From a bacterium (GTDB lineage: Bacteria > UBA10199 > 2-02-FULL-50-16 > JAJFLM01), in the NCBI GenBank assembly GCA_965216315.1, contig CBDCFN010000016.1, forward strand, positions 2,240,001-2,304,000: a DNA stretch of 64,000 bases, read 5' to 3'. Position 1 is the first letter of the stretch. Each line of letters starts with the position of its first letter. The notes beneath the pieces are model-generated. The model made no database searches. It was not told the DNA's origin and was given only the letters and a program-made list of their open reading frames with translations. This document shows positions 20,779 through 55,782 of the stretch, in pieces. The position numbers were made by a program, and so were the translations under genes.

Positions 20779-21450
20779 TCAGATCCTCGGTGGAAAAGAC
20801 CATGGGGGTATCGGCTGGGGAGCATTCAAGGACGGCGGCTGGAAATTCTCGAAGGGGTGGAAAGCTGGTTCCTCTTCCTGTACCGGCACCTCATCAAAAG
20901 GGTTGTAAGTGGGATCTTCAATATCCGGGCCTTCGATGATCGGAATCTCGAGCGGAATCTCTATCGCAATCGTCGGTATATACTCGGGCAAGGCAATCAT
21001 CCCCAATTCAATTTCCTCGAAACGGATATTACCGAAATCAACAGCGGCTTCGCTCGGTTCAATCTTGATATAGGGAGAGAGTAGACTCATTTCTTTACCG
21101 AACATCAACGGAATGGCGGTGTCATTCCCCAGGGATAAATCGATCGTGTAGTACTCTCCCGTCCGAACGTAGAAACTAAACGAGCAGTCGGATTCTGTCA
21201 GGTAAGAACGCTCCTTGCCACTGAGGTCCGTCACGATGATCGGACCGGCCGAACAAGCCACTCCCCCGAGGCTCAGGCCCTGGAGCTCAACATCGTGGGC
21301 CCATGGCACAAATCCCGTGACCTGTCGGTATTCATCCGGTGGATTCCCAATCTCGCTGCCTCCTTGCAAGTCGAAGACTTGGGTCTCCCCCCCACATGCG
21401 ACCCCCAAACTAGCAATCAAAACCAATAAAATGAAAAATCGTTTACCCAC
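20779..21450 (-). CDS. Lipoprotein of the GNP-motif family
   Basis: Lipobox GVAC, then GGSEIGNP; DCSFSF.V..G.YY domain; overlaps the end of the TIGR02147 gene. Confidence 0.8.
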   Translation of the reverse strand: MGKRFFILLVLIASLGVACGGETQVFDLQGGSEIGNPPDEYRQVTGFVPWAHDVELQGLSLGGVACSAGPIIVTDLSGKERSYLTESDCSFSFYVRTGEYYTIDLSLGNDTAIPLMFGKEMSLLSPYIKIEPSEAAVDFGNIRFEEIELGMIALPEYIPTIAIEIPLEIPIIEGPDIEDPTYNPFDEVPVQEEEPAFHPFENFQPPSLNAPQPIPPWSFPPRI

Positions 21451-22306
21451 GCTGCGGCTCTCCTTCCATCTCCGTAAAAGGGATCATCTGAATTCCCAAA
21501 AACACGACGTCTTCCGGCTTATCGTCATCCGCAACCAATTGAAGAATTTCGCGTCGAAACTCCTGAATCTTCTGTTTGAGTTGTGGAAGTCGTTTACGTG
21601 CAATACCCAATGTTAAGGCGCTCACGTCGCGCTGTTCCTTTGCGATAGCGGGCAGGCGCTCTTTGACGATGCCCAACATATTTTGATGATATTGCATGGA
21701 GATCTTCGACACGGCATCCGCGCCTGTCGAGACGAGCGGCTCAGCCTGTTCCCAACGCAGTCGGCCGTTATCGTTTAAGCGTCTGATAAACCGCAGACGT
21801 TCCAATAACCGAATCGATTCAAGCACGGTTTTCTCGTCGACTGCGGGCACCAAACGTGAGGCAATATTCTTGAGAGACCCATCAAAGTCCGCAGCGACAA
21901 TGAGCTCGCGAATCACCGGATGATACCAGTGCGTCCAATATTCATAGTGATCGATAGAAAGCGGTTTCAGCTCATAATATTGACGGAGCTTCACGAGCTT
22001 GCGATAGTATTGTTTTTTGTGGCTCTCCGACTTGGCCTGATTGAAGCAGACGAGGGCACGAAAATAGTCCCTTTGCTGCCGGTCCAACTTTAAACCCTTG
22101 ATAAATTTATTGAGGCTGCCATCGGTAAGGTTGCGCTCCCCGTCCATGACACGCTTGTACATATTCGGGGACTGAAAACCCGCCAAGCGCGAAAACATCC
22201 GCAGCGAGAACCCAAAACTTGACTTCGCTTCCTCGTACCACGCGCGCAAAAAGGCGCGATAGTCCAGAAAGTCGAATGGACTTATATTGACTAAATTTTT
22301 CTCCAT
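21443..22306 (-). CDS. TIGR02147/DUF4423-family HTH protein, copy 1
   Basis: F..LDYR.FL..WY, FS.R.FS..AG..S, G.RNL, V.FNQAK, WYHPVIREL, RDVS.LTLGI, I.EFR.EI. Confidence 0.9.
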   Translation of the reverse strand: MEKNLVNISPFDFLDYRAFLRAWYEEAKSSFGFSLRMFSRLAGFQSPNMYKRVMDGERNLTDGSLNKFIKGLKLDRQQRDYFRALVCFNQAKSESHKKQYYRKLVKLRQYYELKPLSIDHYEYWTHWYHPVIRELIVAADFDGSLKNIASRLVPAVDEKTVLESIRLLERLRFIRRLNDNGRLRWEQAEPLVSTGADAVSKISMQYHQNMLGIVKERLPAIAKEQRDVSALTLGIARKRLPQLKQKIQEFRREILQLVADDDKPEDVVFLGIQMIPFTEMEGEPQRG

Positions 22307-22424
22307 AATGCACCCAGCCTTGATTAAAGGCTCTGTGCTTGTATCGACTGAAGTTCAAAATTGTACACGGTTTTTTTGACGAATCCTTGCGAATGCGCAT
22401 CCGCGCGGATTCACCTGGGGCAAC

Positions 22425-24500
22425 TTAGCGTTTTAGCAGCAAAGAACAGCCGCCTACACTACGCGCCTTCGGAACGGATGCATCCGAGGATGAATCCGGC
22501 GGATTGACCGTAACCACGTCATCCCCAGGTTGCGTAGATGGAACATTGTCTTCTTCCTCGCTGCTTGGAAACTGACTTTCCGAGCCGGCCTCGACCGGGG
22601 GCTCTTCCCCGTTGTCTTCTCCCGTCATCGAATCGGGAACCAAGCGCGTCGGGAGGCCCATGTTGCCATCAGACTTAGGATCCTGTGCTTCAGGAGTCGC
22701 CGCTCGACCTTGATCCGTGCCACGATCGCGACGTGTCGAATCCTGATCGCTCCGACGGTTCTGACTGGCAACGCGAACGTCGAAAGTCCGCGGCAGAGTC
22801 ATCGACTTAGTCCAGGCTTCCAGCTGCGCCTCGCTCAAATACTCGAGGACATCCTCCGTAAAACCCAGCGCATTTTTTAACGAATACGGCTGACTCACTG
22901 CTGAGATTAACAGGCTGTTACCGGTCATGGCCTTTTGAAACGCCACCATCGCGCGGTCATAATAAGCGCGTCGTTCATGGACATTGTGAATACCGTGCCA
23001 CGTAACCACCTCGGACCAGTCCCCGTGATAGACCTGAAACACGATGTTATCCGCCTGAAAATCCGCATCCTTTTCGGGAAGGAACGTTTTAAACTCAATA
23101 GGTCCTTTATTATCCGCCGCGACATCGATGCGTTGCGCTGCCAATAAATATTGCGGATTGTTATCCGTATCTGCCGCATACACCATGAGCGTCGCCGTCT
23201 TCACATTAAAGAACTGTTCTGGATTTAGTTTTCCGGAGACAAACCAGCCGAAAGACAGCGTGACCATCGACCTGGCTGGCGCCCTTGAATAGGCTGACGT
23301 CCGTCGGCACCGGCAACCTAAACTGGGACTCCATCCGTATCCGTAAATACGAAGTTGTCACCGTTCCCGCCCTGAAAACCGCCACGCGGCATGTAGACGT
23401 GCGGTCGATAGGCGTTACTCTTCACGCCGGCGGCATTATCCGTGAAATAATTATCAAGCAAGAGAAGGTTCCGCCCTTCAATCGCCGCTACCGAATTGTT
23501 CTGAAAATGAGAATCAACGATGACCGTATTGGCGGCCCAGATACCGACTTCGTTGTTCGTCACGCTAACGTGACTAAGAATGACCACTTTGATCACTGAG
23601 CACGCAGATACCGTACTTAAAACCCGAGACCTTAAAACCGGTATAGAGCCCCGGACCGGTAATCACCACACCACACTCTTTACCGAATAATTGATTGTAA
23701 GGAGTGGGATAGCCCTTGCCTTCGGATTGCACGATGCCCGGCGGCAACTGATAGTCCGCTGCTTTGACAAATTCATAGGGTCGCGTCTGAATCCGTCCCG
23801 TGGCATCGCGCTCGTGCGAGAACTCCACACGCGGCCAATGAGCATCTGTCTCAAAAAGCTGCAAGTTTTGCGCATGAGTCACATTATCCCCATGTAATAC
23901 AATGCTGTCCGGACCAAACACCGCTACAGGGCTAAACATTAGAAAGGGTTTTGATAGGGATAAAGTCCTGGATTCCCCCTCATCACTTGCAAAACGAAGA
24001 GTGATACTGTGGAGACGTTGCTTTTCCTGACTCCATTCCGGTGAATTACTTGCATCCAATCCGAAGGTAACTCCCGGCGTATGTTGGAGCCAATTCGGTC
24101 CTGAAAGCTGCATGGCATCCGGAGTCCAGTGTTTAGCAAAGTGCCATTCGGGAGGAATGTCTTCATAACCAATCGTCTCCGTCATTCCATAAATAACGGA
24201 TCCGTATTGCTGGGCGATACCATGCTTACAAGCGGCGTCGTATTTCGAACACGCCGCGTCGGCAATTTTTTGTCGAATATTATATCGTGCTGGTTCCGCC
24301 TGCTTATTAAAATAAAAAACCTTTTGCAGATAAGAAACATCATGGACCGTTATCGGCCAGTCAGCCCCGACAAGATCCACACACTGCCCGGTCGATTCAC
24401 AACTCAGCCATTCTCCGTATTCATCCAGATAGGCCTCGGCCTGCGCCGTCACCAGACTGCACAGGGCCGCTACAATTGATAAAGTGATAAATCGTCTCAT
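22425..24500 (-). pseudogene. One ~690-aa secreted beta-helix protein with GGCSL tail, split by about three +1 frameshifts (ORFs 23574-24500, 23318-23596, 22425-23267)
   Basis: First and last ORFs share a frame; removing one A at ~23589 restores alignment to paralogue 24497-26161; may be sequencing error. Confidence 0.7.
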
Positions 24501-28276: not shown

Positions 28277-28315
28277 ACGCACCTCCATAAACCCGCCAAT
28301 TTTTTAGTTCCGCCA

Positions 28316-33964: not shown

Positions 33965-34118
33965 TCTTTTCTCCTCATTTAAGTAGGCATACACACACTA
34001 ATTTCCACGTCTCCCCATAGCGCAGGGATGATCGACAGCTCAGCAAAGAGACCTTGTAGAGTCAATATTAAGCCTCTCGACGACGACAAATACCGTATCT
34101 CTCCGGATACACCCCGGA

Positions 34119-39073: not shown

Positions 39074-39850
39074 CTATTCGGGCATTTCCTCGACCGACCC
39101 ATCCGTATTCATCATTGCCCCGTCTTTTGCGATACGCTCCATGAGTTCGTGTAGTGGAACGGCATGACTCCGACGGGATTCAAACTTTCGCTCTTCATGC
39201 TTTTCATCCGTCGCCGCACCTTCTTCCGCGTCGTCATCCTCCCGCATTTCCTTTGCTTGCATCGGCATCAATCCAGCCAGATGACCGTAACTGGATTTAT
39301 TTAAAGTTGTGAATGAAGTATCCGTCTCTGCTTCGGTATTCGGAAGCGCGACCCAACGATCGTCGTCGAGAGCCAGACCAAGCTGTCCCCAGCTTAGCGG
39401 ACGTTCGCTCGCCTCGACATGAAGCTGTTCACTCAAACCCTCTTCCGTCGTGAAAAGCAAAGGGATCTGCTCCTCGCTGCTGAGACTCAAGGAGAAATGA
39501 TAATACTGCCCGGTCTCAACCCAAAAACTAAAACGACACTCGAAATCGACCGAACCGATGACGACGGTTTGAGGACCCTGCTGCACCCAAATCTGGCGTC
39601 CGACGCAGTCGCCGTCGCCCGCGAATTCCGCTTCTGCCTGCCACTCGGACTGCGGCGGCACCATGCCGATGATCTGGCGATAGGCGGACGGTGGATTACC
39701 GGCCTCGGTCCCGCCTTGAAACTGGCTTAGCGGCGGCTGCGTGCCGCAGGCAAAGCCGCCCAGGGCCTGAATGAACAGGCCCACCACGATGACGATGCAT
39801 TTTCGTATGGTGTATTCTCCCGATAAGATATTTTGCTTAAGTGAGAACAT
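39074..39850 (-). CDS. Lipoprotein of the GNP-motif family (start uncertain)
   Basis: GFAC lipobox, GGTEAGNP, ECRFSF.V.TG.YY; closest in-window paralogue is 20779-21450. Confidence 0.75.
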   Translation of the reverse strand: MFSLKQNILSGEYTIRKCIVIVVGLFIQALGGFACGTQPPLSQFQGGTEAGNPPSAYRQIIGMVPPQSEWQAEAEFAGDGDCVGRQIWVQQGPQTVVIGSVDFECRFSFWVETGQYYHFSLSLSSEEQIPLLFTTEEGLSEQLHVEASERPLSWGQLGLALDDDRWVALPNTEAETDTSFTTLNKSSYGHLAGLMPMQAKEMREDDDAEEGAATDEKHEERKFESRRSHAVPLHELMERIAKDGAMMNTDGSVEEMPE

Positions 39851-39858
39851 CACCTAAG

Positions 39859-39919
39859 TTATCGAAAGAATAAAGGAAATGTTGTATACAGCGGAAAATA
39901 TCTGTTGACTCAAGTCAAC
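39859..39919 (-). promoter_or_regulatory. Promoter CAAC-N15-TCGATAA (39859-39884) with GTTGAC-TCAA-GTCAAC (39904-39919) 19 bp upstream
   Basis: Perfect palindrome at the conserved spacing. Confidence 0.75.
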
Positions 39920-39929
39920 AGCTGCGCCT

Positions 39930-40754
39930 TTAGCGCAGCTGTTCGTGCAGATCTTCCGGATCTTCGATCGGCTGCTGCGCGCCACCGATCTCATTCAATG
40001 ATTTGATGACCTTAATAACGCTGTCTCTTTTGATCATCATTTTATCATCACCCTGTTCTTCTTCCTGCTCCGTAATACCGTAAGTTCCGGTGAACGGATT
40101 AGTCACCTCTTCGGCGCCTTGATTCTCCTCGGTGCCGCCAAAGCCTTCTGCAGGACCGGCCTGTTCCGTCTCGTCTTCACCTTCGCCCTCAGGATAATAG
40201 GGACCGCCGGTCCCTTCACTGGACCCGCCCGCCCGGGCGGCATAACTATCGCCTTGCTGGTAGAAGGAGATCTTGCCAATATCGTGGGTCACTCCGCGGC
40301 CTTCGAAACGGACATGAGGCGTATCATCATCGCCAAAGCCAACTCGAACCCGGGTGCCGTCAGGCATTTCAATATCAAACATATACTTGTCGCCAGACCG
40401 CAATCCAGGGATCGTAAAATCACAACTCGGCGTTACAGACGCACTTGTCTCTAAATGAGTGTGCACGTTCGTGGCAATAACCTTAACGCCCGCGCAGGCG
40501 TTCGGTAAATTCGGATCAAAACCGGGAATCTCCTGCATACGAGGAACGTTACCGGTCACCGAAACGATGCCGGGGTTTTCGGCCTGCCCGGGATCTTGAT
40601 CAGTCACCGAGGGACCGTTCCTGGGGTTACCCGCTTCGGTACCGCCTCGAAGTCCGGGATTTCCTAAACCGCCACCACTACCCCCAGTATTGCAAGCAGT
40701 GACCGTTATCGCCACGACAGCCAAGGTTAAAACTAAATTAAATGCTTTCTTCAT
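39930..40754 (-). CDS. Lipoprotein of the GNP-motif family
   Basis: MKKAF...VTAC lipobox, GGGLGNP and GGTEAGNP, SCDF.I.....G..Y; directly after TIGR02147 copy 2. Confidence 0.8.
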   Translation of the reverse strand: MKKAFNLVLTLAVVAITVTACNTGGSGGGLGNPGLRGGTEAGNPRNGPSVTDQDPGQAENPGIVSVTGNVPRMQEIPGFDPNLPNACAGVKVIATNVHTHLETSASVTPSCDFTIPGLRSGDKYMFDIEMPDGTRVRVGFGDDDTPHVRFEGRGVTHDIGKISFYQQGDSYAARAGGSSEGTGGPYYPEGEGEDETEQAGPAEGFGGTEENQGAEEVTNPFTGTYGITEQEEEQGDDKMMIKRDSVIKVIKSLNEIGGAQQPIEDPEDLHEQLR

Positions 40755-40779
40755 GATGTAACACCCTTTCGTACGCTTC

Positions 40780-41628
40780 TTACGCTCTTTCATGTTTTGT
40801 CACCGGCAGCATCTGGATACTGAGCAAGACAACATCATCTGGATTGTCATCGTCAGCAACCAACTGGAGGATTTCGCGTCGAAACTCCTGAATGCGTTTT
40901 TTGATCTGCGGGACTCTTTCTTTAATAATTCCTAAAGTCAGAGCACTGACATCCCGTTCTTTTTGTTCCACCTCGGGAAGCTGCCCTTTTAATAAATCAA
41001 ACAAACTCTGGTGATAATTTAAAAGCACGAGGGAATCGGCTTCGGCACCGCTCGTTACAAGCGGTGTCGCCTGTTTCCACTTATTGGTCACCGCATCACG
41101 CTCAATAAAATGAAGTCGCGCCAACAATTCGACGGACTTTTTTACTTGCGCGGGAGACACTTCCGGCTGCAATCTTTTAGCCAACCACTCGATTGAACCG
41201 TCAAAATCCTTAGAAATGATCAACTCGCGCACAACCGGATGATACCAGGTTGAAAAATACTCGTAACGATCCTGCGCAAGTGGCTCTAACTGACTGTAGC
41301 GTTGAGAACGAATCAACTTCTTATAGTAAGCGTTTTTTTCCGCGTGCGTTTTCGCCTGATTAAAGAAGACGAGATTACGAAAGTGCTCGCGCTCCGGACG
41401 CTCCAGTTTGATTCCTTTAATGAATTTCTTGAGGCTTTCCTCAGTCAGGTTACGTTCGCCATCCATGACGAGTTTAAAAATATTGGAGGATTTAAAGCCG
41501 GCTTGCCGGGAAAAGACCCGATATGAAAACCCGTACCGCTCTTTGGCCGATTCATACCAATCGCGCAAGAAGGCCCGGTAATCCATATAATCGAATACTG
41601 AGACGTTATTGTTGCCGTTGTTACCCAT
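40780..41628 (-). CDS. TIGR02147/DUF4423-family HTH protein, copy 2
   Basis: Same motif set as copy 1 (DYR.FL.DWY, FSYR.FS..AG, WYHPVVREL, RDVSALTLGI). Confidence 0.9.
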   Translation of the reverse strand: MGNNGNNNVSVFDYMDYRAFLRDWYESAKERYGFSYRVFSRQAGFKSSNIFKLVMDGERNLTEESLKKFIKGIKLERPEREHFRNLVFFNQAKTHAEKNAYYKKLIRSQRYSQLEPLAQDRYEYFSTWYHPVVRELIISKDFDGSIEWLAKRLQPEVSPAQVKKSVELLARLHFIERDAVTNKWKQATPLVTSGAEADSLVLLNYHQSLFDLLKGQLPEVEQKERDVSALTLGIIKERVPQIKKRIQEFRREILQLVADDDNPDDVVLLSIQMLPVTKHERA

Positions 41629-41703: not shown

Positions 41704-41826
41704 CCTCATTTTGACGAAATTTATCAATTTTTTGTATGCAGCAATCCCTATCTAACTATCTGTTATTATTAATTTTTTAATTTCTATCTTATTTATGCCC
41801 TTTTTTTTGAGTCAACAGGCCCCCCT

Positions 41827-41888
41827 GTTGACCCAGGTCAACAGATAATCCTGACGAAACGCAACGAAGACTCGAACGAATCCGATAA
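41827..41888 (+). promoter_or_regulatory. GTTGAC-CCAG-GTCAAC (41827-41842) 19 bp upstream of promoter CAAC-N16-CCGATAA (41862-41888)
   Basis: Perfect palindrome; extra GTCAAC half-site at 41811. Confidence 0.75.
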
Positions 41889-42597: not shown

Positions 42598-42608
42598 CGT
42601 TCACTCGT

Positions 42609-42670
42609 GTTGACTGACGTTAACAGATAAACTTTTTGCAACGCAACAGTGTGTCGGTAGGTACCGATAA
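42609..42670 (+). promoter_or_regulatory. GTTGAC-TGAC-GTTAAC (42609-42624) 19 bp upstream of promoter CAAC-N16-CCGATAA (42644-42670)
   Basis: Motif pair with conserved spacing. Confidence 0.75.
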
Positions 42671-42676: not shown

Positions 42677-42758
42677 TACAACAAGTTATTCAACTTACAC
42701 ATACGCACCCATGACACTCCAAAAAGGTCATCCCTCTCCCCGGGGGGATGACCTTTTT
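42677..42758 (+). ncRNA. Candidate ~80-nt sRNA (motif copy 2 plus terminator); 5' end estimated
   Basis: Own promoter, no complete ORF, 27-nt motif at 42694-42720, terminator AAAAAGGTCATCCC...GGGATGACCTTTTT. Confidence 0.65.
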
Positions 42759-42770
42759 ACTTTTAAAGGT

Positions 42771-42841
42771 GTTAACTTACGTCAACAGATAAAGCCTTCG
42801 TTAACGAATATTAAACAACATCGTTTGCGAATAACCGATAA
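42771..42841 (+). promoter_or_regulatory. GTTAAC-TTAC-GTCAAC (42771-42786) 29 bp upstream of promoter CAAC-N15-CCGATAA (42816-42841)
   Basis: Motif pair. Confidence 0.7.
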
Positions 42842-42890
42842 TACTACAGGTAGGCTAACTGATAACTCGTTTCAGAAAGGTTGGGATAAC

Positions 42891-43238
42891 ATGTCGTATC
42901 AAATTCATACCGTCCGTCCGGGAGACACGTTGGCAAGCATTGCGCGGCACTACGGCGTCACCATGCAGCAACTCCGGAAGCTGAATGTTCATCTCACGCA
43001 ATCGAGTGGCTCGATTCCTCGTACGAGTGCAGGAAGTAAGATTTACGTCGGTGACGAAGTCCGTATTAAAGAGCTCCTTGAGTGCGGCCGCAACGTCGGG
43101 CCTTTTCAGTTGGGTTGTCGTTATGCGTCGAGTGACACATTAAAACTGGAGTTTGGTATCAAGGGCGACGTAAGCACACAACCCCTTAATTCCTCAATCA
43201 TGGTTGGCGCCAGAATCACTTTTTCCGGGGGCAACTAA
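42891..43238 (+). CDS. Small LysM-domain protein, no signal peptide
   Basis: HTVRPGDTLASIARHYGVT...L..LN...IYVGD; GAAAGG Shine-Dalgarno-like sequence upstream. Confidence 0.85.
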   Translation: MSYQIHTVRPGDTLASIARHYGVTMQQLRKLNVHLTQSSGSIPRTSAGSKIYVGDEVRIKELLECGRNVGPFQLGCRYASSDTLKLEFGIKGDVSTQPLNSSIMVGARITFSGGN

Positions 43239-43247: not shown

Positions 43248-44435
43248 CTAGGGTTGCGCCGTAAACGAAGTCGTTGCGGCCTTGGTCTTACCGCCCGTCC
43301 CGCAGTCGATTTCATCGACCTTGACCTCGTATTCGGTCCCGGCGGCAAAGGGGTCAACGCCGTGCTCGCACGCGATCTCATCCGCCCCCAGCTGATGGTT
43401 GGTGCAATCGACGTCGATCGCGAGTCCTTTGGGCTGAATAATCAGCGCGCTGGGAAAATCGATCAGGCCAAGATGATATTTGCAGCCCAAGCGAACAATC
43501 ACCTGTTCCGAGAGGCCTACGCCCGTCTGACCGTTGAAGGGATAAATTCTCAAGACCGGAACCATCCCCCCCAAATCTTCCTCACGACAAGGTGAGCCGG
43601 GATCATTGTCATCGATAAAACCATTGAGGTCACAATCCCGCTCCATTTGATCAAGTACGCCGTCGTTATCATCGTCCGTGTCGATCGCATCCGAGTCCCC
43701 ATCCTCGTCGCGGTCCGTATAGATCTCCGGATTGTGTTCCGGAATCGCGTCAAGACCCTCGATCTGCACCCGACCTAAGTCAACGGGTTTCTCGGCCGGG
43801 AGCCCGACGTAAAACTCATTTTGGCGGATAAAGGCGCGCTGCTTACTGAGATGTTCCATCTTCACGACCAGGCGCGCGACGAGGTCACCGGTCTTTTTTC
43901 GGAACTCCAGCATATAAGCGCGCTTGGTCGGCACAGCGAGCTTAAAAGAGCAATCCGATTCAATTCTCGTAGTGAGCTCTTGTCGTGCAGAGTTGATCGC
44001 GGTCACGGTCGCGGCCGGACAGACCTTGACTACCGCAATTTTAGTCGCCTGCTCGGCCCATTCCGTCCGGATGTTTACCAGACTCATCTGCATGAGCGGC
44101 CTGATATCCTTATACGGCAATTCGCGCACCGGGCTCTCGATCAGCTGCCGTTCCTCTTCCACGGGCTGCAGCTGACCGATGATCAGGCGTAGCGGAGCCG
44201 GATCCTGATCGTAAGGTGTTCCCGGCCGTGGCCCTGGTCCCGGATCAGTCGGCGTCGCTTCCGGATTCCCGAAATCCGTTCCCCCGAACTCTGGGTTCCC
44301 GAAATCCGTTCCGCTGATCGTTTGCTCGGTATCGACAATGTCCGGTGGTGCGGTATCCGCTCCCTGCGGCTGGACGCACGCGGCAATAAAAAAGACGAGC
44401 GCAATAGTACTGAGCAACCGGCTCCAGCAGGTCAT
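43248..44435 (-). CDS. Lipoprotein of the GNP-motif family (2 copies) with DxDxDG repeats and Ig-like C-terminus
   Basis: IAAC lipobox, SGTDFGNPEFGGTDFGNP, DCSF.L.VP...Y; ATGA overlap with TIGR02147 copy 3. Confidence 0.82.
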   Translation of the reverse strand: MTCWSRLLSTIALVFFIAACVQPQGADTAPPDIVDTEQTISGTDFGNPEFGGTDFGNPEATPTDPGPGPRPGTPYDQDPAPLRLIIGQLQPVEEERQLIESPVRELPYKDIRPLMQMSLVNIRTEWAEQATKIAVVKVCPAATVTAINSARQELTTRIESDCSFKLAVPTKRAYMLEFRKKTGDLVARLVVKMEHLSKQRAFIRQNEFYVGLPAEKPVDLGRVQIEGLDAIPEHNPEIYTDRDEDGDSDAIDTDDDNDGVLDQMERDCDLNGFIDDNDPGSPCREEDLGGMVPVLRIYPFNGQTGVGLSEQVIVRLGCKYHLGLIDFPSALIIQPKGLAIDVDCTNHQLGADEIACEHGVDPFAAGTEYEVKVDEIDCGTGGKTKAATTSFTAQP

Positions 44436-45292
44436 GATCCACCTGCCTCGTCCGTCGGCTCTTCGACCATCGGGAATAAATAGATATTCAACTGCAAGAC
44501 CTCCTCCGTCTCCGTATCATCGGCGACCAGCTTGAGGATGTCCTGTCGAAATTTTTCGATTTTCTTCTTTATCTGGTGCAGGCGGGGCTTGGTTACTCCC
44601 AAGGTCAACGCCCCCATATAGCGCCTCGGTGCCGGAACGGCCCCAAGCAGGTGGGGGAGAAGCTTCATCATAGTCTTATGATAATTGAAAAGCTCAACGG
44701 ATTCAATAGCGGTCCCGGGGGCGAGCACGGAAGAGCTCTGTTCCCAGCGTCCTGACGGGCTGCGATGGATCAATTCGAGCTTTTCCAAGAGCTCGAGCGA
44801 GGCTTCGACCTGCTCCAATTTGATCCGTTTTCCGAGCCGCGTCATCAACCATTCCGGGGTTCCATCATAGTCCTTGGCCGTGATGAGCTCGCGAATGACC
44901 GCATGGTACCAAGCCGAACAATATTCATGCTGATGGGCTCTAATCGGTTGTCTTTGTTGGTATTTTTTCGAACGCAGCAACAAGTTGTAGTAACGATCCT
45001 CTTCTTCATGGGTCTTGGCCTGGTTATACGCGACCAGATTGCTAAAAAAATCGGCGTCCTGGGCCGCCAGCTTCAAGGCCTTAACCGTCTTCGGCAAGGT
45101 ATCCGCAGTTAAGTTCCGTTTTCCCTGAATGACCAACATGATGTAGTTGGAGGACTTGAACCCGGCGCGTTCCGCAAATCTTCGATAGGACATGGAGGCC
45201 CGGGTCTTTTTCTTCGCCTCAAACCAGTCGCGCAAATAGGTACGATAATCGTTGTAATCGTAGAGATTTATGTCCTCTGCCGGCTCCGACAC
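44432..45292 (-). CDS. TIGR02147/DUF4423-family HTH protein, copy 3
   Basis: DYR.YL.DW, SYRRFAERAG.KS, G.RNL, WYHAVIREL, LTLGV, I.KFR.DIL. Confidence 0.9.
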   Translation of the reverse strand: MSEPAEDINLYDYNDYRTYLRDWFEAKKKTRASMSYRRFAERAGFKSSNYIMLVIQGKRNLTADTLPKTVKALKLAAQDADFFSNLVAYNQAKTHEEEDRYYNLLLRSKKYQQRQPIRAHQHEYCSAWYHAVIRELITAKDYDGTPEWLMTRLGKRIKLEQVEASLELLEKLELIHRSPSGRWEQSSSVLAPGTAIESVELFNYHKTMMKLLPHLLGAVPAPRRYMGALTLGVTKPRLHQIKKKIEKFRQDILKLVADDTETEEVLQLNIYLFPMVEEPTDEAGGS

Positions 45293-45357: not shown

Positions 45358-47238
45358 CTAACCCTCACCATTCGGGTCTTGGATGACCATGCGTGCCGCC
45401 GCCGTCCAATAGTCGACGTCAATCTCCGCATCGACGAGGAGGCGTGCCCCGGCCAAGGTCGTAATCTCCGGATGTTCGTGGAAGCGAATCGGGATCAACG
45501 GGATAAAGTAAGGTGGGTAACGCTCCAATACATAATCAAGCAGCTCCATTTTATCATCGTCGCTAAGCCACTCGAGTCGCGCTAACCCCAAAAACCGAAA
45601 GGCCTGTCGCAAGTTGAGCGGCTTCGGATAGAGCGACACATGGGCCGTTTGATAGATATTCCATAATTCGTGGAGGTGGCTCTCGATCTGACTGCGCTGT
45701 TTCTGCGGCGAGGTCACGCCGCCACCTACGAAGATGATGTGCTGTCCCGGATAACGCAAAAACCGTTTGGCAAATTCCGCAAATTTCTCGACATACTTAC
45801 CCGAGATATAAACAGACTCATCAAAAATAAACACTGTCGGTTGCACGATATCATCGATCTCGCGGATCAAGCCGATGGCCCGATCACCTCCCCCCATCGC
45901 CTGGGCATCAAGCGAAACGACTCGGTGCCCCCTTTCTGATAAGACCCGTTCCAAATTCCAGATGAGAACCTCACTTTTTCCGGAGCCCGAAAGGCCGGTC
46001 GAAGAGACGAGCTGGACACCATCCTCAATCGCGCTAACGACCTGATCGACTTCGGAAGCACGATAGTCACGAAGCGACTTATCCGAAGGATCTCGATCGA
46101 TCGACCGCAGCAGCCGACTATCCTGAGTACGAAAGCCCACCACATGATAAGGGGATCGCGGTTGAGTCCGCTGCGATAAGTCAGGAATCGGCGGGGTCTG
46201 ACGCGGGCGCGGAAATAGGTGGGGTCGATAAATAATCAAGGCATTGCGCACCGTCTCCGGCAAATTGGTAAAGGGCATCCCGAGCACACCCCGTACACGA
46301 CGGAGAATGCGGCCGCCGCGTCCCGCAATAACCGATTCACGAAAACGGCTGATAGTCTCATCATCCTTTAAATCCAATTGCATCGTGTAGCTGGAGCGAT
46401 CGAGCAAGAAGGCCAGCCCCGGACGGCGCGCCACGTCCACGACCTGATCAACCGTAAACTGATAACCATGACGCTCAATAATCTCGGACACAACTCGCAG
46501 CCAGCCGAGTTTAATCCGGGGGAGCACAATAAACCCAGCGAGTTCGCGTGGACTCCTCAGTTCATTGTATTTATCTTGAGCAAAGGCCTCGCCGTAATCG
46601 CCCGCAAATTCCTTCAGTTTATTGCCGATGGCATTGCGAGTTCCCTGATCGATCGTAACCCCATCAAAGAAGCGGTAGGCATAACGGCCGACCTCACGCG
46701 CTTCGATCTGGAAGTCACTCACCATCCCACTCTTGCGCGCAAAATGAAGTAGATTTTGATGGATCTGCAGAGCCAGTCGGGACTTGGATCCCGTAATTTC
46801 TATGGATGTATCACTCCTTCGCGTCAGCGATCCGTCCGCATTCCGTTGCCAGACGTACGTACAACTTCCATTGATACTGTCACCATTCCCTTTAAACTCG
46901 GCGTGCGTCTCAAAAGTATTTTCGTTGTGTCTCGCCACACGCAGGCAATCAAGCTTCAAGGAAATGTTCATTCCTTCAAAGGCATTAATCAGATCCTGGA
47001 TGGTGACCCGCTCCCCAAAGAATTGCGCAAACGCTTGATGCAAAGCGGGATGCCGCGACGCATCCTCAATCGCATAGTCGACATCGTCGATCGATACGGA
47101 GCTGAGCCGGTGCGTTTGAATAGGAAACGGCCCCGAAGGAGGATTTAAAATATCGAAAGAATCCCCGGAGGCCAGAACAGTCGTCATCAAGCCTATTGAG
47201 GCTAAACCGTTCGTATAGGAGGACACCACAGGCAGCAT
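45358..47238 (-). CDS. Hypothetical protein with C-terminal P-loop NTPase domain
   Basis: GLSGSGKS Walker A, VFIFDE Walker B; start at ATG 47238 or GTG 47244. Confidence 0.7.
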   Translation of the reverse strand: MLPVVSSYTNGLASIGLMTTVLASGDSFDILNPPSGPFPIQTHRLSSVSIDDVDYAIEDASRHPALHQAFAQFFGERVTIQDLINAFEGMNISLKLDCLRVARHNENTFETHAEFKGNGDSINGSCTYVWQRNADGSLTRRSDTSIEITGSKSRLALQIHQNLLHFARKSGMVSDFQIEAREVGRYAYRFFDGVTIDQGTRNAIGNKLKEFAGDYGEAFAQDKYNELRSPRELAGFIVLPRIKLGWLRVVSEIIERHGYQFTVDQVVDVARRPGLAFLLDRSSYTMQLDLKDDETISRFRESVIAGRGGRILRRVRGVLGMPFTNLPETVRNALIIYRPHLFPRPRQTPPIPDLSQRTQPRSPYHVVGFRTQDSRLLRSIDRDPSDKSLRDYRASEVDQVVSAIEDGVQLVSSTGLSGSGKSEVLIWNLERVLSERGHRVVSLDAQAMGGGDRAIGLIREIDDIVQPTVFIFDESVYISGKYVEKFAEFAKRFLRYPGQHIIFVGGGVTSPQKQRSQIESHLHELWNIYQTAHVSLYPKPLNLRQAFRFLGLARLEWLSDDDKMELLDYVLERYPPYFIPLIPIRFHEHPEITTLAGARLLVDAEIDVDYWTAAARMVIQDPNGEG

Positions 47239-47272
47239 ACTCACTTCATCGCCGCTCTGCGTAAGAAGTTGC

Positions 47273-48121
47273 TTAAGCCTTGGGGCTCGTTAACGGAAAC
47301 ATGTGAATATTGACCTGAACGACCTCTTCCGGGGTTTCATCTGCGGAGACGAATTTGAGGATGTCCTGACGAAATTTTTGGACTTTTTTCTTGAGTTGCT
47401 CCAGCCTTTCTTTACGCACCCCGAGGGTCAATGCACTGATATCGCGTCGTTCTCCCGGTACGGTATCAAGAACCTCCTTGGTCAACTCGAGCATATTATA
47501 ATGATATGCAAATAATTCGATCGAGCGAACATCCGCCCCCGTCGAAACTAAACTATGGCTCTGTTTCCACCGACCTTTTTTATTGCGCTTGGCGAAGCCC
47601 AAGGTTTCTAATAATTCGAGAGAATGCGTCACATCGGCAACAGATACTTTCGGAAAAATCCGTTCCGCAATCCATTCAGCAGTCCCGTCATATTCTTTTG
47701 CCGTAATGAGTTCGCGAATGACGGCATGGTACCAACGAGAGCAATATTCATATTGGTGCGTGCGTATCGGTTCTAACTGGTTATACTTTCTCGACCGCAG
47801 CATGCGTTGATAATAACGCTCTTTGTCCCGCTGATGTTCCTCCTGCGTATAATGAACCAGGTTTTCAAAAAATTCCGTCTCCTGCTTGTTCAGCTTGAGC
47901 GCCTTGGCCACTTTAGGAATGCTTTCTTGGCTCAAATTTCGCTTGCCCTGCAACACCATCATAATGAAATTCCAGGACTTGAGGCCGGCACGCTCCGAGA
48001 ACTTTCGATACGACATGCCCGCCCGGGTCTGTTTAGCAGCTTTGTACCAATCGTTTAGAAAATCACGATAATCTAGATAACTAAACGGGCTGACCTGATT
48101 GGCAATGCGTGACTGTGACAT
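47273..48121 (-). CDS. TIGR02147/DUF4423-family HTH protein, copy 4
   Basis: Same motifs; closest to copy 3 (PIR.HQ.EYCS.WYHAVIRELITAK.YDGT). Confidence 0.9.
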   Translation of the reverse strand: MSQSRIANQVSPFSYLDYRDFLNDWYKAAKQTRAGMSYRKFSERAGLKSWNFIMMVLQGKRNLSQESIPKVAKALKLNKQETEFFENLVHYTQEEHQRDKERYYQRMLRSRKYNQLEPIRTHQYEYCSRWYHAVIRELITAKEYDGTAEWIAERIFPKVSVADVTHSLELLETLGFAKRNKKGRWKQSHSLVSTGADVRSIELFAYHYNMLELTKEVLDTVPGERRDISALTLGVRKERLEQLKKKVQKFRQDILKFVSADETPEEVVQVNIHMFPLTSPKA

Positions 48122-48443: not shown

Positions 48444-48515
48444 TTATCGGATATATGAGGTCCGCGGATGCGGATTATCAGCAGAATATTCTATAATCAG
48501 TGTACTTTAGTACAC
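48444..48515 (-). promoter_or_regulatory. Promoter CATC-N16-CCGATAA (48444-48470) with GTGTAC-TTTA-GTACAC (48500-48515) 29 bp upstream
   Basis: Perfect palindrome and motif pair. Confidence 0.7.
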
Positions 48516-48565: not shown

Positions 48566-49711
48566 CTATAAAGCCGTCTTAAAAGTCCAACTCGTCTGCG
48601 GAATACTTTCCCCGCCGTCACAGTCGGTCTCCAGCAGCGTCGCCGTGTACGTCATGTTGTGCACAAAGGGAAGCGCGTGCGTACACTCAATAACCGTATT
48701 GCCAACAAAGAGAACCGACACGCACGCAATCGTGGCAGCCACTTCATCCTCGAGTTTGATCTTGCCCGAATCAAACTGGCCGACATCAACGGGGCAACTG
48801 ACCTTGACCCGTATCTTTTGCAACTCACCTATATCCGTTTCGCCACTAAAAGGAGACGCTGCGAGCACTCGCGGTCCGGAAGAGGATCCTCCTGCGGAAC
48901 ACGCGGAATCTTCGTCGCCATCATCGGGAAAGCCATCGAGGTCACAGTCCGGCTCTTCCACATCAGGAATTCCATCATTATCGTCGTCAGGATCGTCTTT
49001 GTCATTGAGGCCATCTCCGTCGCGGTCACTCCACGCGCGCGGATCATTGGCCGCCGTTGCAATCTTACCTGTGCGCGCAATAGCCCCCAAATCGAGCGGG
49101 GTGTCCGAAGCCGGGATGTTGAAAGTATGAAGCGGAACGCCTCCGACTACTGAGACGACTAAACGCGATTGGATCGAGCCTGCCGACCAAAAACTCATAT
49201 GATAAAGTTGATTGGAGGGGACCTCAATACGGAAAGAACAATCGTCTTGAATATCGGACTCATGAACCTCTCCATCGGAAGCGGTTAACTTGACGTGGTC
49301 GACCCCGCAAATCAGCTTCGGCGGGGTCGCGAAGGAACCGGGACCAGGCGCGGGCGGTTCCGGCACGGTACTTCCTCCCGTCGTAAACCCCGGGGCCAAA
49401 CCTACCTGGTCGCCCGCGAATCCAGGATTGTCTCCCGGTGCCGGCTCCTCGTTCCCTGAAGGGGCCTTTTCTGCAATGAGTTTCAACTGACCCGTCACGA
49501 GAGCGATGGGATTGCCGAATTCGGAACCCCCTTGAGGATTACCAAATTCCGAACCTCCCTGTTCCTGCGGATTACCGAATTCGGAAGCGCCGGTCTTTTC
49601 GACCTCAGCCCCAGTGGGGACGTTATCGGGAGAATCAAGACCGCCTCCCGGTACACAGGATGTCAGTAGGAATAACAGGGCCGTAATCGAAACAATTGAA
49701 CGCGCGTGCAT
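48566..49711 (-). CDS. Lipoprotein of the GNP-motif family (3 copies) with DxDxDG repeats and Ig-like C-terminus
   Basis: LTSC lipobox, GASEFGNP/GGSEFGNP/GGSEFGNP, DCSF.I.VP...Y; paralogue of 43248-44435. Confidence 0.82.
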   Translation of the reverse strand: MHARSIVSITALLFLLTSCVPGGGLDSPDNVPTGAEVEKTGASEFGNPQEQGGSEFGNPQGGSEFGNPIALVTGQLKLIAEKAPSGNEEPAPGDNPGFAGDQVGLAPGFTTGGSTVPEPPAPGPGSFATPPKLICGVDHVKLTASDGEVHESDIQDDCSFRIEVPSNQLYHMSFWSAGSIQSRLVVSVVGGVPLHTFNIPASDTPLDLGAIARTGKIATAANDPRAWSDRDGDGLNDKDDPDDDNDGIPDVEEPDCDLDGFPDDGDEDSACSAGGSSSGPRVLAASPFSGETDIGELQKIRVKVSCPVDVGQFDSGKIKLEDEVAATIACVSVLFVGNTVIECTHALPFVHNMTYTATLLETDCDGGESIPQTSWTFKTAL

Positions 49712-49760: not shown

Positions 49761-51239
49761 TTATTGTCTCAACAGCGCACGGCGCCCAAACAACACGCCT
49801 AATGCTGCCAAGGCCATCACGAAGAGGCCGAGTGTATTTGCCGCGTGAGGCGTCGCGTTCAGGCTACAACCACCCGATGTCGCGAGTGATTCACTTTCTT
49901 CACCCGTTCCATCACCGACGATAACTTCTTCATTTTCCGCCGGATTCTCTTCCGCATCCTCTCCCTTATCCGCGTCTATGTTTATAAGTTCGCCTTCACA
50001 TTGATCATCACAACCGTCGCCATTTTCTTCATTCCCGTCGTCGCAGTCCTCTCCCTCATCCACAATACCATTGCCACAGAGACCTTTTTCGAAGGCCCCG
50101 ACATCCGAACTGACCCCAAGAGGCCTCGGAAAACCGCGCTGGTCTTCAGCCAGCTTGACAATGATGGCGGCATCAATAGCGAGGCTGCCGGCTCCAAGCG
50201 CATGTGTGCGGGTGTCTCCGCCGTTAAAAGCCAAGGCTTGCAACTTAAGATCGGCACTGTCGACTCCCGATTGATCCGTCGTTTCCGTAAGGTTACAGGT
50301 TCCGTCGACATCAATGTTGCCACCACCCGATGTAATCGTCCCGAGACCACCGGACGTATCGCAATTCGCGTCAACGCCGCCGGATCCGTCTACCTGTGCC
50401 AACAAACTATTATACAAATTCACTTCGCCATCACCGGCAACGAGATGAGCCGCTAGCAGGTCAGCACGATTATGATAGAAAGTGACATGCCAGAGATCCA
50501 CATCGTCCGCGAGACTCACCAGCCCGCCACCGGTCGGCGCCGTATTGTTACTGATCGTGACATTCACCAACTTGATGTTGCTAGAGCCCGTTCCAACGGC
50601 AACACCGCCACCAAAATCGGCAGCGCTATTGTCGCTGACCAAACAGCGCTCCATATCAAGCGTTCCGGTTCCTATCGCCAGACCGCCGCCAGCGTCGGCT
50701 TCATTGCCGATAAGCTCGACATCACGCAAAATAATATCACCGGATCCATCCGAATAGATTCCGGCACCGGGTTCCGTGGGGCTCGATCCACTCTGAATCG
50801 AGAGTCGCTCAAAAGTTACGTTCGCATTATTTAAAACGTGAAACACTCGACTGTGTTGACCACCACTGATAATCGGCAGAGGCAATTTCTTAAGCGGGAT
50901 AGCACCCGAACTCAAACTCGGGTCCCCTTGGATGATGACATCATCCGTGATATCAAAATCGCGCAGGCCATTCGCATCATCATCGACAAGCATCGTCTCA
51001 TCGATTCCATAAATGCCGTTGGCAATGATAATCGTATCTTCGCCGGGATTGCTATTCGCTAGATTAATCGCCGCACGCAAGGTGCATGACGTTCCGCCAC
51101 CGAGCATGAAGAAACAGATACCACCATCTTCCGTTCGATCCACGGTATAAGTCTCCGCGTGGACTTGAGCCGCCGCCAACATCGCGACAACCACCGCGCT
51201 AATAATTGAGAATTTTTTAATCGTTTCCAGTATACCCAT
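49761..51239 (-). CDS. Secreted CSLREA/beta-helix protein with full MYXO-CTERM-like anchor
   Basis: CTLRAAI..AN, DQRG.PR, one Cys repeat, GGCSL-spacer-TM-RR tail. Confidence 0.88.
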   Translation of the reverse strand: MGILETIKKFSIISAVVVAMLAAAQVHAETYTVDRTEDGGICFFMLGGGTSCTLRAAINLANSNPGEDTIIIANGIYGIDETMLVDDDANGLRDFDITDDVIIQGDPSLSSGAIPLKKLPLPIISGGQHSRVFHVLNNANVTFERLSIQSGSSPTEPGAGIYSDGSGDIILRDVELIGNEADAGGGLAIGTGTLDMERCLVSDNSAADFGGGVAVGTGSSNIKLVNVTISNNTAPTGGGLVSLADDVDLWHVTFYHNRADLLAAHLVAGDGEVNLYNSLLAQVDGSGGVDANCDTSGGLGTITSGGGNIDVDGTCNLTETTDQSGVDSADLKLQALAFNGGDTRTHALGAGSLAIDAAIIVKLAEDQRGFPRPLGVSSDVGAFEKGLCGNGIVDEGEDCDDGNEENGDGCDDQCEGELINIDADKGEDAEENPAENEEVIVGDGTGEESESLATSGGCSLNATPHAANTLGLFVMALAALGVLFGRRALLRQ

Positions 51240-51277: not shown

Positions 51278-51350
51278 TTATCGACTCCGGTGGGGTCTAA
51301 GTTGAGCGTCAATGAGGAATATTTACCTAAAACAGTGTACATGAGTACAC
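51278..51350 (-). promoter_or_regulatory. Promoter CAAC-N16-TCGATAA (51278-51304) with GTGTAC-ATGA-GTACAC (51335-51350) 30 bp upstream
   Basis: Perfect palindrome and motif pair. Confidence 0.75.
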
Positions 51351-52220: not shown

Positions 52221-52745
52221 ATGAGCATTTATTCACTTCCTAAAACACAGGACGAACAAAAAAATATTCTGACAGAGTCGGCGTCAGAACAGGAAGAAGA
52301 CTATTCATTTACCATTGACGGCAACTTAATGGTCGACACGGGGGCCAATATAAGCACGGATAAGGCCACCGCTTCGATGACTTTTCAGCTGGGCGGCACT
52401 TTCTTTTGGCATCTCCACCCTGACATCTCGCCCGGCTTTTACGTCGGTGCCCGCTATCACTTAGTTCCGGAACGCGCCCATCGCGTCCACCGTGTCGGCC
52501 TCACTGCGAGTCCCGCGTTGATGATTCATCTAGCACGCACAACAATCATCGCCGAGGGCGGTCTACGCCCTCAATATAATCACACTGACGCGGCTTTTGA
52601 TCTCGGCGGCGGAGGTTCCATCAATATTGTATTTTCCGATTGGGGCGTGGGCGTTTTTGCGGAGCAACACGACATTCTCATGGATAGAATGCGCGATGGC
52701 GTGAGTCTTGGTATCCGCCTCTTTACTCATTTTATCCTGTACTAG
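52221..52745 (+). CDS. Hypothetical beta-strand-rich protein, no signal peptide
   Basis: TAAGGAG before ATG 52221; alternating Gly/hydrophobic strands. Confidence 0.7.
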   Translation: MSIYSLPKTQDEQKNILTESASEQEEDYSFTIDGNLMVDTGANISTDKATASMTFQLGGTFFWHLHPDISPGFYVGARYHLVPERAHRVHRVGLTASPALMIHLARTTIIAEGGLRPQYNHTDAAFDLGGGGSINIVFSDWGVGVFAEQHDILMDRMRDGVSLGIRLFTHFILY

Positions 52746-52791
52746 GTCCTATCTTGCTTCCAGCATTGATTTAGTTTAAAGCTTGGAGCCC

Positions 52792-54392: not shown

Positions 54393-55183
54393 GAGCGTGC
54401 TATTTTAGCCTTTAAGATCTCTTTTTTGATAAGCGACCTAAACTCTTCGACTTTTTTAGCGATCTTTTGCTCACTCCCAAGGTCTTGCAAGGTCACTCGC
54501 TGCGGCGCTCCCCATCTCATCACTACTTTTGATGGAAACAGGAATGGTAGTTTCGGAATAATCATGAACGGCGTTTTCACCAACGGCTTTACGAGACTAT
54601 CGATAACAAATTTGTTTTGAATGAGCCAAATCTTAAGTGTTTTCTCCAAACCTGCATGCCCAATCGGAATGATCGATACTGACTCTTTACCTGTCTCCTT
54701 TAAATACTGCTTGGCAATCCTTAAGAAACCCGCATGAAAGGCCGCCACCGAGTGGCCGTTATTAAATGCTTTAACAAAATCCAATCCTTCCGGAAATAGT
54801 AAGATATGACGACGTTTCAGCGCTTGAACCCCTGTTGCAACTGAAAGCGGAACACATTGCCCTAACTGGAGATATTCTCTGAAAATAGGTATTTTGAAGG
54901 CCTCGCGCAACACCATCATATGAATCTTTCCAGCGCCTTGAGAGAAGACATGCTGACACACCAGCGGCGCCTCAAGGGTCAGAGCATGATTGAGAATGAA
55001 AATTACGTGCTCCTTTTTCGCCCGCACTATACCTTCCTCGACAGAACCTTCGTGCCGAACACGATAGTGTAAGTCATGAAGATACTTAAGCCAGGATTTC
55101 GCATGGAGCTCGTAGACAGAATCGCTGACAATGGAATCGTCATAATTGAAGGAAAAAACCTTTTTTAATAGTCGTGGCATCAT
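54389..55183 (-). CDS. Lysophospholipid acyltransferase-like protein
   Basis: NH-X4-E, LFPEG, F..GF.R.A, IIPIG..G. Confidence 0.7.
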   Translation of the reverse strand: MMPRLLKKVFSFNYDDSIVSDSVYELHAKSWLKYLHDLHYRVRHEGSVEEGIVRAKKEHVIFILNHALTLEAPLVCQHVFSQGAGKIHMMVLREAFKIPIFREYLQLGQCVPLSVATGVQALKRRHILLFPEGLDFVKAFNNGHSVAAFHAGFLRIAKQYLKETGKESVSIIPIGHAGLEKTLKIWLIQNKFVIDSLVKPLVKTPFMIIPKLPFLFPSKVVMRWGAPQRVTLQDLGSEQKIAKKVEEFRSLIKKEILKAKIARS

Positions 55184-55209
55184 CGCAACTATTATGAATA
55201 TTAATTAAA

Positions 55210-55782
55210 TCAAACTGGTCTGTCTAATTTTTTATATGTTAGCTTTTTTTCGTCTGGAATCACGGGGATGAGTTCGATCGACATCGTCATCATCTCTTCA
55301 GGAACGACATCATCGTCGACTAAATTGAGAAGTTTACTCCGAAACTCTCGGATTATTTTTTTGAGTTGAGGCAAGTTATCTCTAATGATTCCAAAAGTAA
55401 TCTCACTTAAATCGCGTTTACCCTGATCGAGGCTGAGTGTTTGAAGGCGATGCACATTACGAATAGCCATCAGTTCTAGATAGTGTTCCTTAATTTCGTC
55501 AGGGCTCTCAGCCTGATTTAAGAAGACGAGATGCCGAAAATACTCCGCTTCGTCGTCTTCCAAGCGCAAACCTCGAATAAATTTTCTTAAACTTTTTAGT
55601 GTTAGGTTGCGGTCGCCATCCATAACGAGCTTGAGGATATTAGAAGAACCAAACCCGGCATGTTGTGAAAAGATACGGAGAGAAAATCCGTAGGTCAGGC
55701 GCTTGGCACTCTCATACCAGTCCTTGAGAAAAGTCCTATAATCGAGATAATCATAGACACAGATGTCGGATACAATATTCAT
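55210..55782 (-). CDS. TIGR02147-family protein, copy 5, internally deleted
   Basis: N-terminal HTH part and C-terminal RD.S..T.GI part present; WYH..IREL block absent. Confidence 0.8.
   Translation of the reverse strand: MNIVSDICVYDYLDYRTFLKDWYESAKRLTYGFSLRIFSQHAGFGSSNILKLVMDGDRNLTLKSLRKFIRGLRLEDDEAEYFRHLVFLNQAESPDEIKEHYLELMAIRNVHRLQTLSLDQGKRDLSEITFGIIRDNLPQLKKIIREFRSKLLNLVDDDVVPEEMMTMSIELIPVIPDEKKLTYKKLDRPV

Follow-up and report, generated by a model that had tools for sequence, protein, structure and literature searches.

What links a family of regulator genes to a short peptide, G-[ST]-[ED]-x-G-N-P, carried near the mature N-terminus of the lipoproteins encoded beside them? The question is raised by a 64,000-nucleotide stretch (the window, C16:2240001-2304000) of the 2.96-Mb genome of a bacterium of the UBA10199 lineage (assembly GCA_965216315.1), in which TIGR02147 helix-turn-helix (HTH) genes and paralogous lipoprotein genes recur as neighbours. 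The original prediction, made from this DNA alone, took them for a repeated module. We find that the unit is a two-gene cassette, consisting of an upstream operator region, a TIGR02147 regulator and an exported protein bearing the peptide (the tag), the two genes usually being translationally coupled. The cassette is found in at least five bacterial groups, and the pairing of TIGR02147 regulators with tagged exported partners is undescribed.

Regulators and tagged lipoproteins of the window

Four full-length window genes, all on the minus strand, match the NCBIfam profile TIGR02147 at 260–278 bits (cut-off 50) and also pass the Pfam profile DUF4423 at 98.9–138.2 bits (cut-off 30), which confirms the predicted family (Table 1). 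Five such genes had been predicted, and this count stands only for the four full-length copies. The fifth, 55210-55833, matches in two pieces; it lacks TIGR02147 profile positions 113–212, and we therefore take it for an internally deleted copy. Its DUF4423 score of 27.6 is under the cut-off. Having lost the central winged-helix region, and with no partner and an acyltransferase gene downstream, it is probably a decaying cassette.

Lipoproteins were recognized by reading and by regular expression, as proteins with a basic n-region, a hydrophobic h-region and a lipobox cysteine within about 40 residues; over 73 aligned partner N-termini, conservation of the cysteine column is at least 90%. The window encodes five paralogous ones, whose lipoboxes end in GVAC, GFAC, VTAC, IAAC and LTSC; in each, the hydrophobic leader and lipobox cysteine are followed by the tag. 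The peptide strings originally read (GGSEIGNP in 20779, GGTEAGNP in 39074 and 39930, two copies of [SG]GTDFGNP in 43248 and three of G[AG]SEFGNP in 48566) agree with the translations. A common two-cysteine beta domain had also been proposed, and it is borne out by an alignment of 20 sequences, where its C...DCSF element is invariant; the invariant positions are C19, G30, G31, N36, P37, G46, C66, C89 and F91 in 20779 numbering.

Gene coordinates bear out the three regulator–lipoprotein pairs that had been called overlapping or adjacent. The overlap is 8 nt for 21443/20779, 4 nt (ATGA) for 44432/43248 and 14 nt for 40780/39930, the last turning into a gap of 25 nt should translation begin at the ATG at 40754. 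Lipoprotein 48566 is placed differently, 445 nt upstream of regulator 47273.

The Ig-like (immunoglobulin-like) C-terminal domain of lipoprotein 43248-44435 was assigned by alignment with lipoprotein 48566-49711. Between their beta and Ig-like domains these two proteins, and relatives at loci L002-L024, share a conserved Asp-rich segment, DxDxDGxxDxxDxDDDxDGIxDxxExDCDxDG, reminiscent of thrombospondin type 3 calcium-binding repeats; a TSP_3 match was obtained in L003.

The 628-aa protein 45358-47244 lies between two regulator genes, in the slot where a tagged partner of regulator 4 would be expected. Its GLSGSGKS string can be read as P-loop-like; family profile scans of the protein gave no match.

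Table 1. Cassette genes and candidate operators in the window (window coordinates)
Feature	Position	Strand	Details
Tagged lipoprotein, cassette 1	20779..21450	-	lipobox Cys at residue 19; tag GSEIGNP at 21340-21360; two-Cys beta domain
TIGR02147/DUF4423 regulator, cassette 1	21443..22306	-	TIGR02147 262.4 bits, DUF4423 98.9 bits; structure model pLDDT 87.6
Tagged lipoprotein 2b, second gene behind regulator 2	39074..39853	-	tag GTEAGNP at 39692-39712
Palindrome B copy, 50 nt upstream of lipoprotein 2b (39074)	39903..39920		genome scan
Tagged lipoprotein 2a	39930..40793	-	likely start ATG at 40754; tag GTEAGNP at 40623-40643
TIGR02147/DUF4423 regulator, cassette 2	40780..41628	-	TIGR02147 278.2 bits
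Palindrome B, TGTTGAC-N4-GTCAACA, 198 nt upstream of regulator 2	41826..41843		genome scan
Palindrome B copies around LysM open reading frame 42711-43238	42608..42625, 42770..42787		genome scan
Tagged lipoprotein 3	43248..44435	-	two GTDFGNP tags, 44292-44312 and 44262-44282; beta domain, Asp-rich acidic linker, Ig-like C-terminal domain
TIGR02147/DUF4423 regulator, cassette 3	44432..45292	-	TIGR02147 260.3 bits
628-aa protein directly 3' of regulator 4	45358..47244	-	GLSGSGKS string; no signal peptide, no tag
TIGR02147/DUF4423 regulator 4, exception without tagged downstream partner	47273..48121	-	TIGR02147 278.3 bits
Palindrome A, GTGTAC-N4-GTACAC, between lipoprotein 4 and regulator 4	48500..48515		genome scan
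Tagged lipoprotein 4, upstream of regulator 4	48566..49711	-	three tags, 49568-49588, 49535-49555 and 49508-49528; Big_5 E = 1.1e-4
Palindrome A, second window copy, 96 nt upstream of 49761-51239	51335..51350		genome scan
Internally deleted TIGR02147 copy, no partner	55210..55833	-	124.7 bits in two pieces, profile positions 4-112 and 213-269

Linkage of tag and regulator

Outside the window the arrangement recurs throughout the source genome, which holds 13 full-length TIGR02147 genes and one truncated copy. Directly downstream of 12 of the 13 lies a tagged lipoprotein, eight with the strict tag and four with a one-residue variant (TQAGNP, TEATNP, TEFENP and S[VQ]AGNP). The strict string [ST][DE]xGNP occurs in 13 of the 11,442 open reading frames (ORFs) of at least 60 aa genome-wide, and 10 of these 13 are in or beside TIGR02147 cassettes; the other three are one orphan lipoprotein (C16:1825329-1826009) and two ORFs that have the string outside an N-terminal lipoprotein context. 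A crude regular expression finds 140 lipoproteins in the genome, of which eight are tagged, all of them cassette partners or cassette neighbours. The presence of the motif beside TIGR02147 genes in this genome is not due to chance.

The orphan carries GTETGNP, and the lipoprotein gene upstream of it (C16:1826062-1826907) encodes NGETGSNN; there is no regulator near this pair.

The prediction that the motif would be enriched beside TIGR02147 genes in other genomes was examined from both directions and was strongly upheld. The regulator-first sample comprised 80 loci from species-representative genomes outside the source genome, belonging to 'Deltaproteobacteria'/UBA10199-type metagenome-assembled genomes, Myxococcota, Fibrobacterota, Bdellovibrionota and Bradymonadales; four ORFs wrongly called in high-GC DNA were corrected before counting. 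At 79 of the 80 loci, a downstream gene encodes an exported partner bearing the tag or a near form of it, and its start frequently overlaps the regulator stop (ATGA). The strict motif accounts for 56 loci and the strict or relaxed motif for 75; four further variants were recognized by eye (GVTETGS, STGVGNP). Locus L067 is the only one of the 80 with no downstream partner. As a control, the strict motif was found in only two of the 1,783 other six-frame ORFs of the same loci, both of them lipoproteins.

Further regulator-first samples came from individual genomes and from relatives. All five paralogous cassette partners of one Polyangiales genome carry TETGNP, and in a second genome three of three partners are tagged, two with GTETGNP and one with GTEGGNP. 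Five relatives from the same class as the source organism have clear tag variants, such as GTETGS, TEVGNP, TGVGNP and ITEVGNA, at about 21 of 30 loci. In one Fibrobacter genome the tag is degenerate, A-G-G-[TS]-x-[TE]-T-x-N-[PG], and precedes a CarboxypepD-like strand. TIGR02147 matches per genome reach 37 in one Fibrobacter, 20 in one member of the Bdellovibrionota and 18 in one relative of the source organism. A search for mini-ORFs behind partnerless regulators found none at L090, L092, L110 and L111; L092 carries an untagged lipoprotein behind its regulator.

For the motif-first sample we took 80 metagenome loci matching a degenerate DNA pattern for C-x-G-T-E-T-G-N-P and searched the upstream DNA with a hidden Markov model built from the regulator alignment. 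Among the 60 loci with at least 950 nt of upstream sequence, 38 have a regulator just upstream on the same strand and none has one on the opposite strand. At 21 of the 22 regulator-less loci, reading by eye showed no signal peptide before the cysteine, so that these are chance or unrelated matches; the remaining one, L183, has a lipoprotein but no regulator. In this sample, 24 lipoprotein contexts were recognized by a strict automatic classifier, 23 of them with a regulator. Tag and regulator are thus linked near-exclusively in both search directions.

A further comparison used 93 genomes of the source phylum, which gave 151 matches to the tag-coding DNA pattern against 47 to a reversed control. 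The pattern correlates with TIGR02147 copy number (Spearman 0.57), a statistic that overstates independence since the genomes are mutually related. TIGR02147 is present in 77 of the 93 genomes; in the 16 that lack it, the pattern is at background (7 matches against 7 for the reversed control).

The window regulators are clear members of TIGR02147 ('Fsuc_second')/DUF4423, family names that carry no function. Our literature search found no description of an obligatory tagged partner or of operator boxes for TIGR02147/DUF4423, and only unrelated matches for the tag strings and 'GNP motif'. The earlier statement that TIGR02147 has no established function agrees with the literature, in which the accessible text of one study mentions DUF4423 only in passing (PMC12546842). 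That text lists Bd3700, a DUF4423 protein, among the predator proteins upregulated during growth within prey; in its supplementary data Bd3700 is represented by 16 peptides, peaks at 3–4 h and has a log2 fold change of 2.67 over attack phase (PMC12546842). The family is large and has no function assigned to it; joining tag and regulator turns two unknowns into one defined, testable module.

The tag is a portable peptide motif

The tag is a short linear motif, G-[TS]-[ED]-x-G-N-[PG], present in one to four copies at the mature N-terminus on a disordered tether. Its modal layout is C-x-G-T-E-x-G-N-P, and the distance from cysteine to motif varies from 3 to 33 residues. Every tag position uses all synonymous codons: asparagine is encoded by AAT 35 times and by AAC 32 times, and four Gly, four Thr and four Pro codons occur. 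Such full synonymous turnover means that selection acts on the peptide. The same codon usage rules out the tag as a DNA or RNA element.

The proteins that carry the tag are diverse. The 78 partners fall into 21 passenger clusters with no BLAST link between them, including serpin, beta-propeller, Big_5, DUF4382-like and CarboxypepD_reg proteins; the tag is independent of the passenger fold. On a FastTree phylogeny of the regulators, the passenger clusters require 22 changes for 21 clusters, against 45–51 in the first 10 of 200 shuffles. Regulator and passenger families co-diverge, while the tag is common to all.

The original prediction tied the tag to lipoproteins. This holds in the window but fails in Bdellovibrionota, where we examined one locus in each of 30 genomes; TIGR02147 is present in 33 and absent from eight of the genomes screened in this phylum. 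About 16 of the 30 partners begin G-x-E-x-G-N-[GP] or GNGGG, often behind an ordinary signal peptide without cysteine, which places G-x-E-x-G-N-G at the mature N-terminus of non-lipidated proteins. Two partners behind TIGR02147 genes of this phylum are tag-only mini-proteins, one of 68 aa (L262) and one of 71 aa with two copies of GTEVGNGGP (L270). We conclude from the former that the lipid anchor is not obligatory, and from the mini-proteins that the tag can stand without cargo.

A structure model of lipoprotein 48566 (predicted local distance difference test, pLDDT, 76.9) places the tags within residues 21–62, where pLDDT is under 50; the last tag abuts the first, high-pLDDT beta strand, and a beta sandwich, the acidic linker and the Ig-like domain follow. 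Foldseek with the lipoprotein model returned generic Ig-like domains only, for example those of CopC and L,D-transpeptidases.

Could the tag be without function, a junction or first-strand N-cap that persists because all cassettes go back to one ancestor? The contact between last tag and first strand in the model would suit this explanation, as would the co-divergence of regulator and passenger, but we consider it very unlikely. The tag is conserved over 21 sequence-unrelated passenger clusters and five phylum-level groups through full synonymous turnover, and its additional copies are found in disordered stretches well away from folded parts. The signal peptides adjoining it are not conserved.

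Alternatively, the tag might be a proteolytic maturation site, at which cleavage at or after N-P would detach the lipid anchor or N-terminal stub and so release the passenger. In favour of this, the tag is situated on the disordered tether that joins the anchor to the first beta strand; tandem copies would then be several cleavage sites, and the passengers include usually soluble proteins such as serpins. We nonetheless judge this improbable, as the cassette encodes no protease and cleavage would leave unexplained both why the tag is linked exclusively to a single regulator family and why tag-only mini-proteins exist.

Possible readers of the tag

We tentatively favour the explanation that the regulator family itself reads the tag, such that regulator activity is tied to the exported protein made with it. 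We base this on the near-exclusive linkage in both directions, the tandem tags, the lack of dependence on a lipid anchor and the mini-proteins without cargo. The regulator would then have to bind the peptide. In the more likely form of this mechanism, it would bind the partner precursor not yet exported and translated from the same mRNA, giving feedback in cis on the production or export of the partner; specificity would come from co-translation and not from the peptide sequence. If true, diderm bacteria would have a new means of coupling transcription to a protein that they export.

In a less likely form, the regulator would sense a released tag peptide after re-uptake, much as in Rap-Phr systems. 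The Rap-Phr/RRNPP systems of Bacillota consist of a gene for a cytoplasmic regulator followed by an often overlapping gene for an exported precursor, in which a short peptide is the sole conserved part. The order is the same here, with a regulator gene followed by a gene for an exported tagged precursor (79 of 80 loci). RRNPP regulators have a TPR-type peptide-binding domain fused to the effector or HTH domain. The regulators described here, by contrast, have no TPR domain and an unrelated fold, and their hosts are diderm. The tag also differs from such signalling peptides in opening the mature protein, most often ahead of a large functional passenger, and in having the same core in paralogs of one genome. 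That partners are processed to free G-T-E-x-G-N-P as a peptide or lipopeptide, to be taken up or sensed through the regulator, seems to us quite unlikely. Were it so, the cassettes would form a peptide communication system of predatory, gliding and polymer-degrading diderms (Myxococcota, Bdellovibrionota, Fibrobacterota and relatives), built from proteins that have no relation to those of the Gram-positive RRNPP systems.

Several points count against a regulator that reads the tag. Because the tag is exported and the regulator, lacking a signal peptide, is cytoplasmic, they would meet in one compartment only before export or after re-uptake. Searches of Pfam, of the PDB with the regulator profile and with Foldseek revealed no TPR or other recognized peptide-binding domain in the regulator. 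The core tag is the same, or nearly so, in paralogs of one genome, which makes a diffusible cassette-specific signal unlikely; it also weakens the earlier idea of cognate and non-cognate peptides, since all five cassettes of the Polyangiales genome share the TETGNP core. Because regulator subfamilies and passenger families co-diverge, part of the linkage reflects common descent. Finally, the usual site of the tag, two residues past the lipidated cysteine, is where known lipoprotein sorting signals lie, as far as the available portions of two studies describe them (PMC5080379, PMC3222651).

This last point leads to the main competing explanation, in which the tag serves as an envelope address or docking label and is recognized by a single conserved factor of the periplasm or outer membrane. 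Tagged proteins would be placed on the surface, on vesicles, in the matrix or on a scaffold, and the regulator would only control transcription of the cassette. We regard this as possible though on balance doubtful. In its favour, the modal C-x-G-T-E-x-G-N-P lies immediately past the lipidated cysteine, the core is near-invariant over paralogs and phyla, and the tag is independent of passenger fold. If an address label, the tag would add a new sorting signal for phyla in which little is known of how lipoproteins and other proteins are exported, and would also be a practical tool for protein targeting in Myxococcus, Bdellovibrio or Fibrobacter.

Two precedents bear on this explanation. In Bacteroidota, many surface lipoproteins encoded throughout the genome bear the lipoprotein export signal (LES). 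Its consensus is C-X-K-(D/E)2-X, with K-(D/E)2 at +3 to +5; K-(D/E)2 or Q-A-(D/E)2 occupies fixed positions, +2 to +6, and placement is critical, according to the accessible text (PMC5080379). Like the LES, the tag is a short, passenger-independent acidic motif just past the +1 cysteine, and the conserved acidic residue near the N-terminus speaks for an address label by comparison with C-X-K-(D/E)2-X (PMC5080379). Yet the tag has a single acidic residue, a spacing of 3–33 residues and tandem copies, and this flexible position is at odds with an LES whose position is critical, as far as that text goes (PMC5080379). The tag also occurs without a lipid anchor and is confined to genes behind one regulator family, again unlike the LES.

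The second precedent is Myxococcus xanthus, where the residues +2 Lys and +7 Ala serve in lipoprotein sorting and where the available part of the report gives no conserved motif for outer-membrane lipoproteins (PMC3222651). The use of positions +2 and +7 there supports the address-label explanation, in that the mature N-terminus of a lipoprotein decides its destination in a phylum that also carries the cassette. Those signals, though, are single residues, and that part of the report contains nothing like G-T-E-x-G-N-P (PMC3222651).

One objection to an address label comes from the distribution of the tag. Such a label would be expected on other exported proteins too, whereas the tag is confined to cassettes: the eight tagged proteins among the 140 lipoproteins of the source genome are all cassette-linked, and there is one orphan (C16:1825329). 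Bdellovibrionota partners have the tag without a lipid anchor, and two have it without any cargo. Tandem copies, the cysteine spacing of 3 to 33 residues, non-lipidated partners and mini-proteins fit a cue better than an address label. Curli CsgA offers a third comparison, with a Gly/Asn-rich 22-residue mature N-terminal segment on a Sec-exported protein that is read by an outer-membrane secretion component. That segment serves one protein family and one dedicated channel, and has no paired regulator gene.

Regulator model and candidate operators

In its structure model, the cassette 1 regulator is a helical protein with a putative XRE-like HTH at the N-terminus and a central, MarR-like winged helix at residues 145–187, made of helices (145–170) and a beta hairpin (174–187); the model also has long helices and an extended conserved C-terminal tail. 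Conserved motifs outside the HTH are WYHxxIRE, NYH and RDxSxLTL, besides the tail. Foldseek gave no match at E ≤ 0.001, the best E being 0.016; the MarR, SlyA, FabT and MecI matches are weak, with MarR-type structures at 0.05–0.2. A PDB sequence search with the regulator profile found nothing better than E = 0.15, and a Pfam scan of the regulators found no HTH family at E ≤ 0.01. Atlas look-alike clusters outside PF14394 carry HTH_3 or HTH_26 (scores 0.85–0.90), which we treat as leads only. The regulator looks like a DNA binder, and we infer that it binds DNA and regulates its own cassette.

Candidate operators of several kinds were noted. Boxes reading GTATAC, GTATTC or GAATAC lie upstream of the regulator at 46 of 77 loci, typically as two boxes 10–11 bp apart with a third 65–85 bp further upstream. 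The longer CGTATAC occurs in 19 of 77 regulator upstream regions and in one of 71 control regions, these controls being mostly coding DNA. In the source genome, 14 single GTATAC-type boxes were found in eight of 14 regulator upstream regions, where 0.155 per region is expected; of the paired boxes, only one of 21 pairs genome-wide is upstream of a regulator.

Two longer palindromes, found by genome scan, occur at cassette promoters and also near some further secreted-protein genes. Palindrome A (GTGTAC-N4/5-GTACAC) has seven intergenic copies genome-wide; those outside the window are at C16:2320538, 2308829, 466193, 1121213 and 1696993. One copy is upstream of the regulator C16:2320632 and further copies are upstream of secreted-protein genes, making palindrome A a candidate operator of one TIGR02147 subfamily. 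Palindrome B has 15 copies genome-wide, all intergenic, three of which are upstream of TIGR02147 genes (40780, C16:97715 and C16:105078).

A second motif among the secreted proteins

A different motif recurs at the C-termini of secreted proteins. In the source genome, 21 large secreted proteins have G-[GS]-C-[ST]-L-x(1-6)-stop as their precise terminus (GGCSLIR and GGCSLVRR, for instance). Six are encoded in the window, all on the minus strand (22425-23267, 26462-28288, 28316-30628, 30695-33994, 34119-37160 and 37388-38950), and 15 elsewhere. Many, including five of the six in the window, match choice-of-anchor-Q or cysteine-rich acidic repeats. The ending resembles the GGCS box of a MYXO-CTERM-type signal minus the transmembrane helix, and may be a shortened sorting signal. 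Four other proteins, among them 49761-51239, have a GGCS-type box plus the helix and a basic tail.

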